Assembly (NCBI RefSeq): GCF_048403405.1
Contig: NZ_CP183129.1
Length of the DNA: 64,000 nucleotides
DNA from: Escherichia coli
GTDB taxonomy: Bacteria; Pseudomonadota; Gammaproteobacteria; Enterobacterales; Enterobacteriaceae
Reading direction: 5' to 3' (one strand)
Shown here: positions 1-14,875 of the stretch, piece by piece
Position numbering within the stretch: the first letter of the stretch is position 1
Layout of the letters: the number at the start of each line of letters is the position of its first letter
Translations under genes and position numbers: made by a program
The notes under the pieces: generated by a model
What the model was told of the DNA's origin: nothing
What the model saw: only the letters and a program-made list of their open reading frames with translations
Database searches by the model: none

Positions 1-920
1 CATACCGCCTCCAGCCGGATACCGTTATCGGCACCGTACTCTGTACCGGTGGGCAGCGTGTCGGGGAAAAACTGAGAAGAGGAAACAGAACGGGGACTGG
101 CCGGAGAAGATAAAGAAGACTCGCGCTGTTTACGGAAGGCTTTCGCCCGCTGCGCCTGTGTGGTCAGCGCCAGATGAAAACGGCGGCCCGCGCCGTCCGT
201 CACCCCCGTCACCGCGCCCGCCGCTTCCCCCTCTGCCGCCCGGTGGAAGGCCAGCGTCCGCCCGAAGCCGTCCACCACGCCCGTCAGCACCCGGTATGCG
301 GGCGGCTCCGGCGGCAGCACCTCGTCCGCCTCCGGCACCCGCTCCGGCCAGCCGAGTATCCACCACGGCCCCTGAAGGCTGTTTGTCGCCAGGTACACAT
401 GCGGGCTTAAGCGGAGACTCTCCGGCAGCACCTGCCAGAGCGCGCTTAGCGGCTGCGAACTGTGCTGCTCCGCCACCCCGCCCCTTGCCAGCCAGAACGA
501 CTCGCTGCGGCTGTAGCTTATCTCGCCGGGAAACAGCGGCTCAAAGTGAATGCTCCTGCCGCCACTGTCGTTGAGTATCAGTTCCCGCTCATGAACCTGT
601 AAGCGGATATCGAAGGGCGCTTTCCAGCCGGGACCAAACACCCCCACCGGCGCGGGTGTCCTGGTCCGGTAGCTGCTGTAGGCGCGGGAAAGAATAAACG
701 GCAACGGGCCGGGCAGCGCAAGATCCGTCTCGCCCGGCAGCACCTTCGCACCCAGTAGCGGGTTCACCGGGTTACCCTTCTGCTCCTCCACCGGGCTGTT
801 GGGACACACCGAGCAGGCCACTCCCGTCGGCGCACCTATCAGCACCCCCGCTGAACCCTGCACAATATCCAGTCCCTTGCGGGTCATATCGCCCTGTCGC
901 GCCGCCGGTTTTCCGCTCAT
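1..920 (-). CDS. Rhs family protein, N-terminal part (partial; continues beyond window start)
   Basis: Minus-strand frame opens with ATG at 918-920 and has no stop to position 1; translation MSGKPAARQGDM...GSAGVLIGAPTGVACSVC...NPVNPLLGAKVLPGETDLALPGPLPFILSRAY is the conserved Rhs N-terminus; GC-rich. Not in ORF track because it runs off the edge. Confidence 0.8.
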   Translation of the reverse strand, partial: MSGKPAARQGDMTRKGLDIVQGSAGVLIGAPTGVACSVCPNSPVEEQKGNPVNPLLGAKVLPGETDLALPGPLPFILSRAYSSYRTRTPAPVGVFGPGWKAPFDIRLQVHERELILNDSGGRSIHFEPLFPGEISYSRSESFWLARGGVAEQHSSQPLSALWQVLPESLRLSPHVYLATNSLQGPWWILGWPERVPEADEVLPPEPPAYRVLTGVVDGFGRTLAFHRAAEGEAAGAVTGVTDGAGRRFHLALTTQAQRAKAFRKQRESSLSSPASPRSVSSSQFFPDTLPTGTEYGADNGIRLEAV

Positions 921-1341
921 GGTTTATTCCTTAAATTATTTATGGTTTTATTCTGAGTGCAATCCATACTGATTCATAACCAGTGAATAAGATTTCCCCG
1001 AATAATCTATATAAATTAGCGAAGTCCTCTTCACTAATTAACCGTAAAATCCCGTACCAATGAAATATAAAAATAACCACCCACACAAATTTATTGCAAA
1101 TATTATTTATTATTGTATATACATCATTCACTGAACGTTCTCAAACTGCATACCTTAGAACCATCAATTAAAGCCACAACAAAAAAAATCGATTACTTTA
1201 TGTCGCATGACAAATATGAATTACATATTAATCAACCTTAAAAACAATCATCTCTTATAATTAACAGCATACCATGAGAAACACAAAATCAATTTACCAT
1301 GCATACCAGGAGCATAATTAACCTCTCACCGCAGGGCGAAA

Positions 1342-2478
1342 TCATGAAGGCCCGCAGCCAGCAAGGATTAGAGAAAGGTATTCATTCTTACGTCCTGCCC
1401 GCTTTTGCTTGCGTTTAATACCCGCTTTAAAGCTATTCTCTGCGGTCAGTAAATTCATCGCGATATGTCGACAAACTGCCAGATTTTCTCCCGCTTCTCC
1501 ACGAACAATCTGGCATTCATCTTCCCGCATCCCCATATCAAGTCGCCAGTGCAGTTGATTTTCTACCGACCAGTGTGCTCGTGTTGCTTCCAGGAGTTCT
1601 TTCGCCGTAAGCGTCACCGAACTTATGTAGTAGCGAAGAATACACTTCTCTGATTTCACCGCTGTTTCTCCTTCCTGTCTGCTCGCCAGCACTATTCCTA
1701 TCGTGCTCAGCTCTGACCATTCATAAGCTAAATCACCCAGAGCGGTTAAATCATGGCTCACAATGCAGCATCGTGTATCTTCCCGTCCATGCCCTTTTTC
1801 CTGCGTGCTGTAACTGTCATACCTCTCACCCAGCCACATTGTCGGCGAGTACCCGTTATCAAACGCCTCCGCTAATTTTCCCTGATTTCCTTTCAGCGCC
1901 AGCAGGTAACCGGCTTTCTTTTTCAGAATTTCACGGGCGATTATATGCTGGCAACCCATTGCATCCAGCGTGACCAGACACCCTTTTAATTCCAGCAACT
2001 GGAGCCGTTCCGGGATCGCCGTTATCTCATTCGATTTTGCCCCTGTTTTCACCTGCCCCAAAACCAGACGATTTTCTGCGCTAAAAGCACTGACCCTATG
2101 GATCACGGCATTACGTTTCGATTTATCGTAAGTACCCCGTAATGACTTACCATCAATCGCCACAACAGAGCCTTCAGACAACGTGTGACAGTCCTTCATC
2201 TACTGGATAAAAAGGGGCTGTAATTGTTTTGCTGAAATCATTCCCATCACTCGGGCAATCGTGTGATGGGAGGGGGTGCCATTTTCAAAATCACCATACA
2301 GGCGTAACCATTCCAGATGCTCCTCACCAAAATCAGCAATTTCTTCCCATCCTTCAGCGCCACCGATAATGGCGGTGATCGTCAGAAAAAGGATATCCGC
2401 CAGGCTGTAACTGGTTTTCCAGGACTGGCGATAATCGTGAATAATTGAAATTTGATCCAAAAGGCTTAGTCCGTTCAT
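1342..2478 (-). pseudogene. ISAs1-family (H-repeat-associated) transposase interrupted by in-frame amber codon
   Basis: Track ORFs 2200..2478 (92 aa) and 1342..2199 (285 aa) are in the same frame, separated only by TAG at 2200-2202; the stop sits where H-rpt homologues have Trp (..FI[NQ]WMRDCH..), so TGG->TAG. Confidence 0.8.
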
Positions 2479-2888
2479 GGTGTGCTATCCATCAAAAAGA
2501 AAGGATAAGATCACACTGAAATAAGATGGTCAAATTGATCGAAAAAAAGATCAACATGATGGGTTTTACGATAAAAGTAATGTCGCGATTTAAAAATTCA
2601 TCATTCACCAAAGTCTTGTGGGGCGCGGGCTTTCATGCTTTTTCCCTGATACGCTACCGCTCTGCCCTGATAACATGATCTGCACGGCGCTATCATATCG
2701 ACATATTTCTCTACATGCGAAAGGATGTTTTATTTTCGGATTATATTAAATTGATATTTCATATAAAAAACGAGATTACATAAATCATATAAATAATTGT
2801 ACCAACTTTAATTACCATTCATAGCAAACAAATGGATGTCCAGTTAACTACGCCAGTGATTTATTAACATTAATCTCCGGCATTATTG

Positions 2889-3495
2889 TTAAATAATGGC
2901 ATTCCTTTTTAGTATTTCTTGTAACGTTGGTATCGGACATACAGCATCAGCAATCGCACTGATATTCGCGGCATTATCTTGAAACCATTCATGCCCCGGT
3001 CCCCATATGCGCATAACGCAGAGATAAGGGTAGCTGATCGCCAAACGCATAAGGTTCAGCAGTGAGCTACGAATTCAACCAGATATAAAACGATTTTCGA
3101 TATTCAATAACATTCTTCTTTAACTGTTCGGGTGCGTCAGGAGCCCAACGCTCAGGGTAATCGGCGAAAGTGAATGTTGGATAGACATTAGCAACCAGCC
3201 AGACCAATAGCCGTTGAAACTGCTGACGTTCGGCGCGCCCAACCGGTGGCGCAAGGTCCGGGCGACGATCGAGAACCATCAATGCAATCGCCGCTGTCTC
3301 CGTCATAATCTCGTCATTTTCCAGCGCCAGTGTCGGAATCTGACACAACGGGTTCAGGGTTTTCAATAACTCGCGTGAGGTTCCCTCGTGGTCAAAACCA
3401 CTGACATCAACGAACTGATAAGGAATATCAGCCAGTGTTAGCATCAGCTCACTGATTGTAGAGCCCCATCCGGGTACGCCATACACCTTAATCAT
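2889..3495 (-). pseudogene. yncG: glutathione S-transferase-like protein YncG, disrupted (nonsense plus frameshift)
   Basis: ORF 3067..3495 gives GST N-domain MIKVYGVPGWGSTISELMLTLADIPYQF... then TAG at 3067-3069 where K-12 has Gln; downstream LTAEPYAFG..WGPGHEWFQDN..LKRNAII still readable but needs a frame change. Confidence 0.75.
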
Positions 3496-5373: not shown

Positions 5374-6435
5374 TTACAGCGCAATACGAATCACATCATC
5401 CGGCTGGGTTGCTTCCTGCTGTTTAGTGGATTTTTGTTTCACACTGACATACAGCGTTTTACCATCGGCAGACAGCGCCAGGCTGTTCGGATGAGTCGGC
5501 GTATCGAACGTTTTCACCACTTTATAGCTTTTCGCGTCAATCACACTGACTTTACCTGCCTGACGATGCGTTACGTAGGCTTCATTACGCGCCGGGTTAA
5601 ACAGCACAGCCAGTGATTCCGGTGCCGCAACCTTCGCCAGAATATTGCCATTACGGGTATCGACCACTAACACTTCTGCGGCTTTAGAATCGGTGATAAA
5701 TGCACGCTGCCTGGCGGTATCAAGGCTAATGTTGATAAAGAAGTGCTCTTTGCCGTCATCCAGCAGCTTTTTACGGCTGAGGATTTTATTGTCGGCGGTG
5801 TCGATGGTAATCAATTCGCCGTCAGCGTTAGTGGTGTAAAGACGTTTGCCTTTGCTATCCAGCGCCAGACCGGTACTCATTTTACCGGTGTTCTGGATGG
5901 CGGTTTTCAGTTTGATATTCTCGCCATCAACGACCCAAATCACGCTCTCTTTACCAATACCACTGATGTAAACGGTGTTCGTGGCATCATCAGCTACCAG
6001 CTCACGCGGTTGCAGCGGGCGCACCTCTTCCGTGCGCTTACGATCATCCAGCACCAGACGGCCTTTCACTTCGCCCGTTTTGGCATCTATCGCCGTGACC
6101 GCGCTGTTTACAGTGTTACCAAACCACAACGTCTGAGTCGTGTTATTGATGGTGGCACCAAACGGCTTGAGATCGTTATGGATCGCCTGCGTCACTTCCA
6201 GAGTAACCGGATCAAGACGATAAACCACGCCGCCTTTATCCAGTTTGCGGCTTTGCGAAGTGGCGAGCCACAGCGCGTTCTCCTGCTGGCTATAAGCCAT
6301 TTCGTAGGCACCTTTACCTACCGCTTTACGCAGCATTTCTTCTGCAGCCTGCGTACTGAATGATGAAGCAACAAGCAATGAACCTAACAGTAATGAACCA
6401 CGCAGGCGCGATGAAAACAGATGACGTAAATGCAT
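5374..6435 (-). CDS. yncE: periplasmic beta-propeller protein YncE
   Basis: 353 aa ORF with N-terminal signal peptide (MHLRHLFSSRLRGSLLLGSLLVASSFSTQA) and repeated propeller-like segments; K-12 synteny. Confidence 0.9.
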   Translation of the reverse strand: MHLRHLFSSRLRGSLLLGSLLVASSFSTQAAEEMLRKAVGKGAYEMAYSQQENALWLATSQSRKLDKGGVVYRLDPVTLEVTQAIHNDLKPFGATINNTTQTLWFGNTVNSAVTAIDAKTGEVKGRLVLDDRKRTEEVRPLQPRELVADDATNTVYISGIGKESVIWVVDGENIKLKTAIQNTGKMSTGLALDSKGKRLYTTNADGELITIDTADNKILSRKKLLDDGKEHFFINISLDTARQRAFITDSKAAEVLVVDTRNGNILAKVAAPESLAVLFNPARNEAYVTHRQAGKVSVIDAKSYKVVKTFDTPTHPNSLALSADGKTLYVSVKQKSTKQQEATQPDDVIRIAL

Positions 6436-6522
6436 GACGACTCCCTTTGATGAACCGATATTTTTGCTGCTTCACAATGCTTCGCTAAGCGTAATCATCG
6501 TTACGCTCTTGTTATAAATGGG

Positions 6523-6541
6523 AATGGTAATCATTATTTTC
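6523..6541. promoter_or_regulatory. putative Fur box in yncE/yncD divergent promoter region
   Basis: GGGAATGGTAATCATTATT matches 15 of 19 positions of Fur consensus GATAATGATAATCATTATC; sits between a periplasmic protein gene and a TonB-dependent receptor gene. Confidence 0.4.
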
Positions 6542-6676
6542 TCAAATGTGGAGCATTTCTTGCCGTTACGACTACAATTTTCTCAATTACTTAACGTATC
6601 GTGCCGTTTCGTTTTCCATATATTTACAATTTTATTACCATGGCGGCGTTTTCCCATTCTTAACTTGGCTTTTTTC

Positions 6677-8779
6677 ATGAAGATTTTTTCCGTCCGACAG
6701 ACCGTTTTGCCCGCACTGCTTGTCCTTTCCCCCGTTGTTTTTGCCGCTGATGAACAGACCATGATTGTCAGTGCCGCACCGCAGGTGGTTTCAGAACTGG
6801 ATACCCCAGCAGCCGTGAGCGTGGTGGATGGCGAGGAGATGCGCCTGGCAACACCGCGCATTAACTTGTCCGAATCACTGACCAGCGTGCCTGGTTTGCA
6901 GGTACAAAACCGGCAGAACTATGCGCAAGATTTACAGCTGTCGATTCGCGGATTTGGCTCCCGCTCCACTTACGGAATTCGCGGTATTCGCCTGTATGTG
7001 GACGGTATTCCCGCCACCATGCCCGACGGACAAGGGCAAACATCCAACATCGATTTAAGCAGTGTACAAAATGTGGAAGTGCTGCGCGGCCCCTTCTCTG
7101 CTCTGTATGGCAACGCGTCTGGCGGTGTAATGAATGTCATCACCCAGACCGGACAACAGCCACCAACCATTGAAGCCAGTAGTTACTACGGCAGTTTTGG
7201 CAGCTGGCGCTATGGGCTGAAAGCAACAGGCGCAATGGGCGACGGCACTCAGCCTGGCGATGTCGATTACACCGTCTCAACCACGCGCTTTACGACCCAC
7301 GGCTATCGTGATCATAGTGGCGCACAGAAAAATTTAGCCAATGCCAAACTGGGCGTACGCATTGATGACGCCAGCAAATTAAGCCTGATTTTCAATAGTG
7401 TGGATATCAAAGCAGATGACCCAGGTGGGCTAACCGAAGCAGAATGGAAGGCGAATCCGCAACAAGCGCCACGCGCTGAACAGTACGACACGCGAAAAAC
7501 CATCAAGCAAACTCAGGCTGGGTTGCGCTATGAACGTAGCCTGAGCGCACAAGATGATATGAGTGTGATGATGTATGCCGGGGAGCGAGAAACGACCCAG
7601 TACCAGTCAATCCCGATGGCACCACAACTTAACCCGTCGCATGCGGGCGGCGTGATTACTCTGCAACGCCATTATCAGGGGATAGACAGCCGCTGGACAC
7701 ACCGTGGCGAGCTGGGCGTTCCGCTCACGTTCACTACCGGCCTGAACTACGAAAACATGAGTGAAAATCGCAAAGGCTACAATAACTTCCGCCTGAATAG
7801 CGGCGTGCCGGAATACGGGCAAAAAGGTGAGTTGCGCCGTGACGAACGCAATCTGATGTGGAACGTCGATCCCTATTTGCAGACACAGTGGCAGCTGAGC
7901 GAAAAACTGTCGCTGGATGCTGGCGTGCGCTACAGCTCCGTATGGTTTGATTCCAACGACCATTACGTTACTTCGGGTAACGGCGATGACAGCGGTGATG
8001 CCAGTTATCACAAATGGCTACCTGCCGGTTCGTTAAAATATGCAATGACCGATGCCTGGAATATCTATCTGGCAGCCGGGCGAGGTTTTGAAACGCCGAC
8101 GATTAATGAGCTGTCTTATCGTGCTGACGGTCAAAGCGGTATGAACTTTGGTTTAAAACCATCCACCAACGATACAATTGAGATCGGCAGTAAAACGCGT
8201 ATTGGTGATGGGCTGCTTAGTCTCGCATTGTTCCAGACCGACACCGATGATGAAATTGTAGTCGATAGCAGTAGCGGTGGGCGTACGACTTACAAAAATG
8301 CCGGAAAGACCCGTCGTCAAGGCGCTGAGCTGGCATGGGATCAACGTTTCGCGGGAGATTTTCGTGTAAAAGCGTCCTGGACCTGGCTCGATGCGACCTA
8401 TCGCAGCAATGTTTGCAATGAACAGGATTGTAACGGTAATCGGATGCCAGGGATCGCCCGTAATATGGGCTTTGCGTCGATAGGTTATGTACCGGAGGAT
8501 GGCTGGTATGCAGGTACGGAAGCGCGTTATATGGGCGATATTATGGCAGATGATGAAAATACGGCCAAAGCGCCGTCTTATACTCTCGTCGGCTTATTCA
8601 CCGGGTATAAATACAATTACCACAATTTAACTGTGGATTTATTTGGTCGTGTCGATAATTTATTCGATAAAGAATACGTTGGTTCTGTCATTGTCAATGA
8701 GTCAAACGGGCGATATTACGAACCTGCGCCCGGGCGAAATTATGGTGTCGGCATGAATATTGCATGGCGATTTGAGTAA
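6677..8779 (+). CDS. yncD: TonB-dependent outer membrane receptor YncD
   Basis: Track ORF 6518..8779; start trimmed to ATG 6677 (MKIFSVRQTVLPALLVLSPVVFA signal peptide), 700 aa; C-terminal ..AWRFE with terminal aromatic residue typical of beta-barrels. Confidence 0.9.
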   Translation: MKIFSVRQTVLPALLVLSPVVFAADEQTMIVSAAPQVVSELDTPAAVSVVDGEEMRLATPRINLSESLTSVPGLQVQNRQNYAQDLQLSIRGFGSRSTYGIRGIRLYVDGIPATMPDGQGQTSNIDLSSVQNVEVLRGPFSALYGNASGGVMNVITQTGQQPPTIEASSYYGSFGSWRYGLKATGAMGDGTQPGDVDYTVSTTRFTTHGYRDHSGAQKNLANAKLGVRIDDASKLSLIFNSVDIKADDPGGLTEAEWKANPQQAPRAEQYDTRKTIKQTQAGLRYERSLSAQDDMSVMMYAGERETTQYQSIPMAPQLNPSHAGGVITLQRHYQGIDSRWTHRGELGVPLTFTTGLNYENMSENRKGYNNFRLNSGVPEYGQKGELRRDERNLMWNVDPYLQTQWQLSEKLSLDAGVRYSSVWFDSNDHYVTSGNGDDSGDASYHKWLPAGSLKYAMTDAWNIYLAAGRGFETPTINELSYRADGQSGMNFGLKPSTNDTIEIGSKTRIGDGLLSLALFQTDTDDEIVVDSSSGGRTTYKNAGKTRRQGAELAWDQRFAGDFRVKASWTWLDATYRSNVCNEQDCNGNRMPGIARNMGFASIGYVPEDGWYAGTEARYMGDIMADDENTAKAPSYTLVGLFTGYKYNYHNLTVDLFGRVDNLFDKEYVGSVIVNESNGRYYEPAPGRNYGVGMNIAWRFE

Positions 8780-8786
8780 TTACCTT

Positions 8787-8810
8787 GATGCCCGGTATTT
8801 GCCGGGCATT
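8787..8810 (+). terminator. hairpin downstream of yncD stop (could alternatively be the IS200 left subterminal hairpin)
   Basis: GCCCGG-tattt-GCCGGGC followed by ATTTAATT. Confidence 0.4.
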
Positions 8811-8883
8811 TAATTGTGCACAGAAAACCCCCAGCTAGGCTGGGGGTTCCGGAAAGCTTTCAGCTTTAAGCCAGTTATTAAAA

Positions 8884-8952
8884 CCCCTTTTGATTTGTTA
8901 AAACACCTTGCGGTCTGGCAACTGCAAGTGTCAAACAAGAAATCAAAAGGGG
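8884..8952 (+). promoter_or_regulatory. RBS-sequestering stem-loop of IS200 tnpA
   Basis: CCCCTTTTGATTT (8884-8896) is the exact reverse complement of AAATCAAAAGGGG (8940-8952); the right arm covers the AAGGGGG Shine-Dalgarno 7 nt before ATG 8959. Confidence 0.7.
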
Positions 8953-8958
8953 GTCCCA

Positions 8959-9417
8959 ATGGGGAACGAAAAGAGCTTAGCGCACACCCGATGGAACTGT
9001 AAATATCACATAGTTTTTGCGCCAAAATACCGAAGACAGGTGTTCTACAGAGAGAAGCGTAGAGCAATAGGCAGTATTTTGAGAAAGCTGTGTGAGTGGA
9101 AAAGTGTACGGATTCTGGAAGCTGAATGCTGTGCAGATCATATCCATATGCTTGTGGAGATCCCGCCCAAAATGAGCGTATCCGGCTTTATGGGATATCT
9201 GAAAGGGAAAAGCAGTCTGATGCTTTACGAGCAGTTTGGTGATTTGAAATTCAAATACAGGAACAGGGAGTTCTGGTGCAGAGGGTACTACGTCGATACG
9301 GTGGGTAAGAACACGGCGAAGATACAGGATTACATAAAGCACCAGCTTGAAGAGGATAAAATGGGAGAGCAGTTATCGATTCCCTATCCGGGCAGCCCGT
9401 TTACGGGCCGTAAGTAA
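8959..9417 (+). CDS. tnpA: IS200 transposase TnpA (Y1 HUH transposase)
   Basis: Track ORF 8908..9417 trimmed to ATG 8959: MGNEKSLAHTRWNCKYHIVFAPKYRR...; HxH motif (HIHML) and catalytic Tyr region (RGYYVDTVG); 152 aa. Confidence 0.9.
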   Translation: MGNEKSLAHTRWNCKYHIVFAPKYRRQVFYREKRRAIGSILRKLCEWKSVRILEAECCADHIHMLVEIPPKMSVSGFMGYLKGKSSLMLYEQFGDLKFKYRNREFWCRGYYVDTVGKNTAKIQDYIKHQLEEDKMGEQLSIPYPGSPFTGRK

Positions 9418-12125: not shown

Positions 12126-12571
12126 ATCAGTCGCTTACCCTTGCTTTTTTGATTGCCGCCGGAATTGGTCTGGTAGTCCAGAACACGCTGATGGTGCGCA
12201 TCACCCAGACCTCCTCTACCATTCTCATCGCCATGTTGCTGAACTCTTTGGTAGGAATTGTGCTGTTCGTTTCTATTTTATGGTTTAAACAAGGCATGGC
12301 GGGGTTTGGCGAACTGGTGTCCAGCGTGCGCTGGTGGACACTTATACCTGGCTTGCTGGGATCGTTTTTTGTCTTCGCCAGTATCAGCGGATATCAGAAT
12401 GTGGGAGCGGCGACAACTATTGCGGCACTGGTCGCCAGCCAGCTGATTGGCGGTCTGGTGCTGGATATCTTCCGCAGCCATGGCGTACCACTACGGGCGT
12501 TGATCGGCCCAATTTGTGGCGCAATTTTACTTGTGGTTGGTGCCTGGCTGGTGGCCAGGCGCACATTTTAA
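12122..12571 (+). CDS. ydcZ: inner membrane protein YdcZ (DMT-like)
   Basis: 149 aa hydrophobic ORF; start overlaps mnaT stop by 4 nt (ATGA). Confidence 0.85.
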   Translation: MNQSLTLAFLIAAGIGLVVQNTLMVRITQTSSTILIAMLLNSLVGIVLFVSILWFKQGMAGFGELVSSVRWWTLIPGLLGSFFVFASISGYQNVGAATTIAALVASQLIGGLVLDIFRSHGVPLRALIGPICGAILLVVGAWLVARRTF

Positions 12572-12805
12572 TCAGAGGATGGTGCCACCTTTGGTTAACT
12601 GTTCGTGGCGCGCTTCCATATCTTCTTTATGCTTGCGACCGTGATGGGCGATCGCTGTGCGCAGACGCTGCTGCTGGGTGTAGCGATCTTCCCGACTTAA
12701 CTCCGCGTCATCGCTCAGGGCGATTAATAATTCGTTCATATGGGCAATGACGCTCTCTTCAATCGCGGCATCCACGCGCGCGATGACTTCATCCAGATGC
12801 GACAT
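12572..12805 (-). CDS. ydcY: small protein YdcY
   Basis: 77 aa ORF MSHLDEVIARVDAAIEES..; its stop codon directly abuts the ydcZ stop. Confidence 0.8.
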   Translation of the reverse strand: MSHLDEVIARVDAAIEESVIAHMNELLIALSDDAELSREDRYTQQQRLRTAIAHHGRKHKEDMEARHEQLTKGGTIL

Positions 12806-12890
12806 ACTTTCTCCTTAGCCACTTGTGAAATTTATCGATTCATCCAAATGATATAAGTCTGCGTGGTGCCGTCAAGCCAGTGAGTAAGAT

Positions 12891-13064
12891 TTAAAACAGT
12901 GAAAACAACAGCGCCACCGGGAAACTCATCGGCCATGTTGCCCCCACCAGAAAGGCGCTTAAGAAACGGATGCGTTTCTTATCGTGAGAAAGAAACCAGG
13001 TGATAAGAAATGCGATTGCTGCCATAACCGCATAAAAAACAAGCATGTGTTGATAGAGAGACAT
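12891..13064 (-). CDS. ortT: small membrane toxin OrtT (YdcX)
   Basis: Track ORF 12891..13139 trimmed to MSLYQHMLVFYAVMAAIAFLITWFLSHDKKRIRFLSAFLVGATWPMSFPVALLFSLF, 57 aa, two predicted TM helices. Confidence 0.75.
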   Translation of the reverse strand: MSLYQHMLVFYAVMAAIAFLITWFLSHDKKRIRFLSAFLVGATWPMSFPVALLFSLF

Positions 13065-13258
13065 GTACGGGCGTCCAGCCAGATGAATAAAACGCGCGCA
13101 AATATGCGTCATTTTTTGACGTGCATCAAGTTTTATCACCAGTTTGAGAAAAAATCATCAAACAGCAACTTGCCCTTATCCATCTTCAGAATGAGTATTA
13201 TTGCGGATTTTCTTAACCCGTACTATACACATAGGGGCAATGATAAAAGGTGGCAAAA

Positions 13259-13354
13259 ATGAATGTTTCCAGTAGAACTGTAGTACTGATAAATGTCTTT
13301 GCTGCTGTTGGTTTGTTTACTCTTATCTCTATGAGATTTGGCTGGTTTATTTGA
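13259..13354 (+). CDS. yncL: small membrane protein YncL (31 aa)
   Basis: ATG 13259..TGA 13354: MNVSSRTVVLINVFAAVGLFTLISMRFGWFI; below the ORF-track size cutoff; followed by a strong terminator. Confidence 0.75.
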   Translation: MNVSSRTVVLINVFAAVGLFTLISMRFGWFI

Positions 13355-13385
13355 TGTAGTGATTTTGCACGCAGCACGTACTGTC

Positions 13386-13420
13386 AGAGAAATCAGTGCT
13401 CTGACAGTACGCAAGATCTT
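13386..13420. terminator. bidirectional terminator between yncL and patD
   Basis: Perfect 13-bp stem CGTACTGTCAGAG / CTCTGACAGTACG with 9-nt loop. Confidence 0.7.
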
Positions 13421-13450
13421 CTCATACTCTTACGATCTGCAATATTATCC

Positions 13451-14875
13451 TTAATGTTTAACCATGACGTGGCGGACGACGGTGTAATCCTCCAGCCCAT
13501 AAAGTGACATATCCTTGCCGTAACCAGAAAGTTTCTGCCCACCGTGCGGCATTTCACTTACCAGCATGAAATGGGTATTGACCCAGGTACAACCATATTG
13601 CAGCCGCGCGCTGACGCGATGCGCCCTGCCCACATCTTTCGTCCATACCGAGGATGCAAGTCCGTACTGGCTGTCATTCGCCCAGTTCACCACCTGTTCT
13701 TCGTTGTCGAAGAGCGTAACACTCACTACCGGACCAAATACCTCTTTTTGCACGATGGCATCGTCCTGTAATGCGCCAGCCAGCAACGTCGGTGCATAGT
13801 AATAGCCATTACCCTTGCGCTTTTCACCACCGGTGATCACTTTGATGTGCCCTGTCGCTTTCGCCTCTTCTACCGCCTTGCTGACGCGTTCGAGATGCGC
13901 CAGCGAGCTTAAAGGTCCAAGCTCCGTAGACTCGTCATCCGGTGCACCCGATTTTAACGTTGCCACTGCAGCACCGAGTTTTTCCACCAGCGTATCGTAA
14001 ATACCTTTTTGCGCGTAGATCCGACAAGCCGCAGTACAATCCTGTCCGGCATTGTAATAGCCAAAAGTACGTACACCTTCGACCACCGCTTCAATATCCG
14101 CATCATCAAAAACTATCACTGGCGCTTTGCCTCCAAGTTCCATATGAGTACGCTTTATGGACGGCGCGGTATGGCTGATGATGTGCTCGCCAGTGGCGAT
14201 AGAGCCCGTCAGCGACACCATCCGTACTTTGGGATGTCCGGTCAGCGGATCTCCCACCGTTTTGCCTCTGCCAAACAGTACGTTAATCACGCCTGCCGGG
14301 AAGATATCTTTCGCCAGCTCTGCCAACTTCAACGCGGTCAGCGGGGTAATTTCTGATGGTTTAAGCACTACACAGTTCCCTGCCGCCAGCGCCGGAGCCA
14401 GTTTCCACGCGGCCATCATCAGCGGATAATTCCACGGTGCGATCGAAGCCACGACCCCCAACGGATCGCGACGGATCATCGAAGTATGACCTTCAAGATA
14501 TTCACCTGCCGCCAGACCATTCAGACAGCGCGCCGCACCAGCGAAAAAGCGAAAAACATCGACAATCGCCGGGATTTCATCATTGAACGCACTATGCAGC
14601 GGTTTGCCACAATTACGGGACTCCAGTTCGGCAAAAACCTGACCATTTTCTTCGATAACATCAGCCAGTTTCAGCAGACATTCCGCACGCACTTTCGGCG
14701 TGGTTTGCCCCCATTCGGCAAATGCTGCATCTGCCGCGCGCACAGCAGCATCGACCTGCTCTGCGGATGCCTCGGCAATCTCCAGTAAAACGTCCCCCGT
14801 TGCCGGATTATAGACAGGCTGTTTTTCCCCTTCGCCGCTAACCAGTTCTCCGTTAATCAGTAACTTATGTTGCAT
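13451..14875 (-). CDS. patD: gamma-aminobutyraldehyde dehydrogenase (YdcW/Prr)
   Basis: 474 aa aldehyde dehydrogenase; catalytic Cys region GQDCTAAC and Glu region MELGGKAP; last gene of the ydcSTUV-patD cluster. Confidence 0.93.

Follow-up and report, generated by a model that had tools for sequence, protein, structure and literature searches.

The upstream spacers of all four full-length rhs genes of Escherichia coli K-12 are AT-rich (28–37% GC), with values of 28.4% for the 430 bp in front of rhsD, 35.5% for rhsC, 35.1% for rhsB and 37.0% for rhsA. The 78 described "promoter islands" include the ybbP/rhsD spacer, which is marked as bound by H-NS in every ChIP-chip set (Panyukov & Ozoline, 2013, PMC3661553), and genomic SELEX with the RpoD holoenzyme located H-NS-marked sites in ybbP>rhsD as well as in yncH>rhsE (Shimada et al., 2014, PMC3946193). 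Putative targets of BglJ-RcsB include rhsA and rhsB (PMC3950696). In Salmonella, the P1 promoter upstream of full-length rhs is inactive and SPI-6 is H-NS-silenced (PMC7043789).

The DNA analysed here is a 64-kb stretch of E. coli sequence (hereafter the window) that includes the site occupied by rhsE in K-12, yncG...pptA. A full-length Rhs gene at this site is preceded by an AT-rich spacer and, further upstream, by a defective H-rpt insertion sequence (IS), all three on the minus strand (Table 1). On the minus strand the Rhs start reads MSGKPAARQGDMTRKGLDIVQGSAG... (MSGKPAARQGDMTRKG... at the start codon). The first 13 kb of the window are 99.99% identical to a locus of strain 266917_2 (L001), in which PGAP starts a 1403-aa "RHS element core protein" at the same base as the window Rhs ATG, annotates a pentapeptide-repeat gene downstream of it, labels the counterpart of the H-rpt "ISAs1 family transposase, internal stop" and places no feature between transposase and Rhs gene. 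In the lineage of the window, PGAP also flags yncG as a pseudogene, with a frameshift and an internal stop.

Table 1. Features around the AT-rich spacer, in window coordinates.
Feature	Position	Size	Strand	Remarks
Rhs core (toxin) gene, 5' part of a full-length gene	1–920		minus	ATG at 920–918; continues past the left window end
Conserved Rhs 5' leader, AAGGAATAAACC then ATG	921–932		minus	Shine-Dalgarno AAGGA at 932–928
Interval from Rhs ATG to H-rpt stop	921–1341	421 bp		Minus-strand genes on both sides; from ORF calls and translations
Unique AT-rich non-coding spacer	933–1331	399 bp	minus	Outside the IS end and the conserved Rhs leader
ORF63	940–1131	63 codons + TAA	minus	GTG start; longest spacer ORF; unsupported as a gene
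Hairpin AATTAGTGAAG-AGGA-CTTCGCTAATT	1014–1039	11-bp stem	minus	From RNA fold; no function claimed
Best sigma70-like candidate	1116–1144		minus	TTGAGA (1144–1139), 17-nt gap, TATATA (1121–1116); top matrix score 9.5
Outer part of right IS terminal inverted repeat	1332–1341	10 nt	minus	IS sequence, outside the spacer
Defective ISAs1-family H-rpt element	1332–2648	1317 bp	minus	From terminal inverted repeats, ORFs and alignment of a relative
H-rpt transposase ORF	2478–1342		minus	In-frame TAG at 2202–2200

The original prediction had described the interval 921–1341 as a spacer of roughly 25% GC with long A/T tracts, located between the 3' end of the H-rpt and the Rhs ATG. Its placement is confirmed by the transposase TGA at 1344–1342 and the Rhs ATG at 920–918. 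The composition has to be corrected, as the measured GC content is 30.9% (A166 C88 G42 T125); values of 27–28% occur only in the best 200–300-bp windows of the interval, and 20–26% in some 50-bp windows. A/T-only runs of 17, 14, 13 and 11 nt are present and are modest in extent. The low GC is no chance effect: nowhere in the 64-kb window (mean GC 49.3%) does a 421-bp stretch have a lower GC content, 0.04% of such windows being equally low. In this respect the interval has the form of an H-NS-bound promoter island or xenogeneic-silencing target, namely an AT-rich tract of at least ~300 bp well under genome GC. The transition at the Rhs ATG is abrupt, GC dropping from 0.64 to 0.28 within ~50 bp; the 5' part of the Rhs gene has 60–74% GC and the Rhs core ~65%. 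Elsewhere in the window, a second AT-rich patch lies between the IS and yncG (2628–3003 and 3067–3495; minimum 30.7% GC per 300 bp), and 43926–44239 is the sole further stretch that falls below 33% GC in 300-bp windows.

On the Rhs side, the edge of the spacer is set by conservation. DNA similarity to the Rhs copies of 2,914 other genomes sets in either at the ATG or 12 nt before it, and the spacer was rejected as part of the conserved Rhs element since 933–1341 is not common to other Rhs copies, which share at most the 12-nt leader. The identical 12 nt precede the Rhs ATG in another E. coli lineage (L026), whose Rhs 5' end is the nearest to that of the window (94.9%).

On the H-rpt side, the edge is set by the IS itself. 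An imperfect inverted repeat, CAGGGnnAAAnCATGAAnGCCCGC, has 20/24 matches between the sequences reading from 1332 and from 2648. The nearest H-rpt relative outside E. coli, found in a Tolumonas metagenome-assembled genome (83% protein and 77% DNA identity), aligns end to end with the window IS (1–1317), the alignment ending exactly at 1332, and has a perfect 10-bp target duplication, CGCATAAACC, on either side. Together, the inverted repeats and this duplication-flanked Tolumonas copy put the IS end at 1332, which dismisses the idea that the spacer is IS sequence enclosed by CAGGG...CCCTG repeats; nor did the spacer travel with the IS, as the flanks of the Tolumonas relative are unrelated. Around the window IS there is no target-site duplication (flanks GGTAGCGTAT and CGGTGAGAGG; 1322–1331, 2649–2658), so the flanks did not start out as neighbors and a rearrangement created the junction. 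The original prediction overlooked this rearrangement junction at the IS end, in view of which the spacer may have a purely historical origin and there may be read-through from the IS.

The IS is defective. When the transposase is aligned to K-12 ydcC, the amber TAG stands at a conserved Trp codon (...INWMRDC... in YdcC against ...IQ-stop-MKDC... in the window), a position that is intact in the Tolumonas relative, which makes the window transposase gene a pseudogene. The amber-bearing copy is near-identical across roughly 140 carrier genomes, and this H-rpt variant is single-copy and found in essentially the same genomes as the spacer only.

The spacer itself occurs once per genome, at ≥99% identity and always on the chromosome, in 144 of 5,426 complete E. 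coli genomes, and is unannotated in every record among the matches listed. This restricted distribution, together with its position next to an Rhs gene and an IS, associates it with horizontally acquired DNA. A search able to detect about 65–70% identity returned no distant relatives in E. coli. Plasmid, phage and other-species origins were considered and dropped, with no plasmid or phage match to the spacer; one spacer 20-mer, a probe that detects near-identical copies only, was absent from 100,044 species representatives. Membership in a known RNA family was likewise set aside, with no match to Rfam 15 covariance models (E up to 1) over 700–3100 on both strands.

Among described regions, the K-12 ybbP-rhsD spacer is the closest counterpart in architecture. 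Both lie directly 5' of the ATG of a full-length, horizontally acquired Rhs gene, are of similar length (430 bp in K-12, 421 bp in the window) and GC content (28.4% and 30.9%), and, on one and the same weight matrix, have a similarly high density of sigma70-like sites. They differ in that they show no sequence similarity, occupy different chromosomal loci and have different neighbors, the K-12 spacer adjoining the housekeeping gene ybbP and the window spacer the end of an IS; binding of H-NS and of RNA polymerase has been measured at the former and is predicted for the latter. The K-12 yncH-rhsE spacer is the positional counterpart, as it lies at the same yncG-pptA locus, is likewise AT-rich with 36% GC, and contains one of the H-NS-marked RpoD SELEX sites. 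K-12 rhsE, however, is a truncated pseudogene without an upstream H-rpt, and the K-12 locus and the window have just 37 bp in common, an island on the side of yncG that stops exactly at the left end of the IS. Homology was found neither to the yncH-rhsE spacer nor to any other K-12 rhs upstream spacer. The Salmonella SPI-6 P1 region resembles the window spacer as the lab-silent upstream region of a full-length Rhs gene within an H-NS-silenced island, although the Salmonella gene is inside a type VI secretion cluster. Where an Rhs gene comes after vgrG within an operon for type VI secretion (L025), the gap is only 75 bp, so a long AT-rich leader goes with stand-alone Rhs genes.

Promoter prediction gave a divided answer on the promoter that had been proposed for this region. 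A strict consensus scan found 1 sigma70 site in the spacer against 1.8 expected and no sigma70 promoter on the Rhs strand, whereas under a lenient weight matrix sigma70-like hexamer pairs are denser here than anywhere else in the window, at 23 over 421 bp (4–5 times the average) when the window was scanned as a whole, and 21, or 50/kb against a window average of 13/kb, when the segment was scanned alone. With the same matrix, which is our own, the published promoter islands having been defined with PlatProm, the density was 67/kb for ybbP-rhsD and 30/kb for yncH-rhsE, placing the window spacer between these two K-12 regions on measures of composition and density of promoter-like sites. On the Rhs strand, the top-scoring candidate lies ~195 nt before the ATG; it fails the consensus scan and is mediocre.

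For each trait associated with H-NS binding, the spacer ranks at or near the top of the window. The spacer has the most TpA steps in the 64-kb window, and the H-NS motif TCGATAAATT has five matches with 2 mismatches against 0.64 expected from the window average, with no match at ≤1 mismatch. All these enrichments (TpA, hexamer pairs and H-NS motif) follow from the AT content of 69% alone. A-tract and TpA counts equal the expectation from base composition, and intrinsic curvature or A-tract phasing was rejected, with no 10–11-bp signal. Given these values and the lack of a motif match with ≤1 mismatch, it is by composition alone that the spacer would count as an H-NS target.

With its anatomy, boundaries, composition, uniqueness and lack of coding support established, the spacer is best read as an AT-rich non-coding upstream region of the Rhs gene, probably bound by H-NS, to which we assign a probability of roughly 0.55. 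The interpretation as an H-NS-silenced promoter is reasonable in view of composition and the K-12 precedent, since the spacer resembles the H-NS-bound regions mapped upstream of K-12 rhs genes, and silencing by H-NS is plausible on this analogy; H-NS occupancy, a working promoter and silencing at the spacer itself are what we infer from it. Under this reading, 933–1331 would be a lineage-specific junction segment between the right end of a dead H-rpt and the Rhs leader, most likely acting as the Rhs upstream region. Its 69% AT would supply many weak sigma70-like sites and, by the same composition, a patch on which the xenogeneic silencer H-NS could nucleate, and the Rhs gene would thereby be held off in ordinary growth, as has been reported of rhsD and rhsE in K-12 and of full-length rhs in Salmonella. 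The segment probably arrived through an IS-associated rearrangement, a route suggested because the IS lacks a target duplication, and may descend from decayed AT-rich Rhs-array DNA.

That possible descent leads to the first of the other explanations, in which the spacer is a decayed relic of an Rhs array, either a displaced toxin tip or an immunity "dsORF", with no dedicated regulatory role, any H-NS binding being a by-product of its composition. Two other E. coli lineages (L026 and L024) have the order H-rpt, AT-rich DNA and Rhs ATG, and there the AT-rich DNA is coding material. In L026 (931–1512), an interval of 33.8% GC holds dsORF-h1, a reading frame of 149 aa with a signal-peptide-like N-terminus, followed by AAGGAATAAACC-ATG, the same leader as in the window; in L024, a toxin-tip-like fragment and a DUF3969 fragment lie between two tandem Rhs elements (5979–7000). 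Order, orientation and AT-richness of the interval (34–38% GC) are thus alike. In addition, the junction is secondary, given that no target duplication flanks the window IS, and the longest spacer reading frame, ORF63, ends 19 nt from the Rhs ATG. However, the L026 and L024 intervals hold recognizable genes or fragments, while the window spacer holds none and has no similarity to them. Neither at the protein nor at the DNA level was similarity of the spacer to any dsORF, immunity or orphan toxin-tip sequence found, position alone being what matches; ORF63 matches only itself and not dsORF-h1, tblastx of the spacer against all fetched loci returned nothing, and the other spacer frames are full of stops. 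We regard a relic without regulatory role as possible but unlikely. As a statement of origin alone, the spacer is plausibly decayed Rhs-array DNA moved beside the IS by rearrangement, with no homology found that would prove it, and such an origin is compatible with the regulatory reading.

Two more features of the wider locus fit this origin. In strain YP3, the left end of a different, truncated ISEc1-like H-rpt lies 5 nt past the flank GGTAGCGTAT (8700–9000 of that locus, corresponding to ~2649 in the window), with genes for PAAR and VgrG coming next. An H-rpt end recurs at the boundary facing yncG, and in certain strains a type VI secretion auxiliary cluster occupies this locus. In strain 266917_2, the Rhs gene and the pentapeptide-repeat gene are bracketed by two H-rpts in direct orientation (6171–6989 and 12412–13728), a layout that resembles a composite element, the two H-rpts having diverged to 67–83% DNA identity. 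The yncG-pptA site is a mosaic with recurring H-rpt ends.

A second alternative denies that the spacer is a promoter region and has the Rhs gene read through from the H-rpt gene or from further upstream, leaving 933–1331 as a long 5' untranslated leader. The H-rpt gene, which is upstream, and the Rhs gene point the same way, and between them there is no more than a weak terminator-like hairpin at the IS end, a strong terminator having been looked for and rejected, so that read-through could supply Rhs transcripts. The lack of a consensus promoter on the Rhs strand points the same way, as does the leader folding slightly better than shuffled sequences, although this is not significant (1110–906; z=-1.92, with 10 of 200 shuffles equally stable) and a structured leader was rejected. 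Against this alternative, transcripts through the amber-bearing transposase pseudogene would be exposed to Rho-dependent polarity. Nor is there an evident outward promoter at the IS end, where no hybrid promoter scored above threshold in the lenient-matrix scan, and K-12 rhs spacers bind RNA polymerase on their own (PMC3946193). Transcription of Rhs by read-through across the whole spacer is improbable.

Coding potential in the spacer centers on ORF63, and the view of the original prediction that no ORF is supported holds. A reading frame of this length is reached in 13% of dinucleotide shuffles (P about 0.13), and ORF63 was rejected as a gene on these grounds and for its lack of homologues: among 5.8 billion clustered proteins it retrieved only itself, and an exhaustive HMMER search of 1.84 billion representatives had the same outcome. 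With no Pfam or NCBIfam match and no BLASTP similarity, a yncH-like, DUF3969-like or dsORF-h1-like small gene was set aside, and a disrupted longer gene was discarded in view of the stop codons filling the remaining five frames and of the empty tblastx comparison with the fetched loci. The hairpin listed in Table 1 sits within ORF63, some 95 nt before the start of the Rhs gene.

Two bolder ideas build on these elements. Either ORF63 is a newly arisen lineage-specific membrane protein translated with the Rhs toxin, or the junction of dead IS and spacer serves as a switch; taken together, we consider them very improbable. IS insertions relieve silencing at bgl, and by analogy read-through, or the GC-richer IS disrupting an H-NS filament, could partly relieve Rhs silencing in carriers. 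Very improbable, too, is ORF63 as a real lineage-restricted small membrane protein co-expressed with Rhs, for which its 63 codons in 31% GC DNA, a hydrophobic segment (FVWVVIFIFHWYGILRLI; 19-residue Kyte-Doolittle means reaching 1.8), its termination close to the Rhs ATG and its listing as a hypothetical protein in two depositors' annotations can be cited, but which has against it the chance-level length, the missing homologues and family matches, a GTG start without a clear Shine-Dalgarno sequence, a best promoter candidate that would initiate downstream of the ORF63 start codon, the absence of any RefSeq annotation under the spacer among the matches listed, and copies that at ≥99% identity are too alike to gauge selection.

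Overall, the spacer is unremarkable AT-rich, non-coding DNA carried by a minority lineage of E. coli. If H-NS silences it, this would explain a quiet full-length Rhs toxin separated from any vgrG/PAAR partner, and would add one more case of AT-rich upstream tracts linked to rhs genes. The more useful result is the structure, in which the spacer is bounded exactly by the end of the IS (1332) and by the conserved leader of the Rhs gene (932); beyond annotation, the significance is small. A rearrangement junction with recurring H-rpt ends helps to reconstruct the shuffling of Rhs arrays at the yncG-pptA site.

A further rearrangement is visible in one genome, that of strain NMBU_W05E18, in which an IS1 is joined to the spacer at ~1124/1125 of the window, the Rhs side is lost and the H-rpt lies between two IS1 copies, an IS1-mediated rearrangement within the AT-rich spacer.
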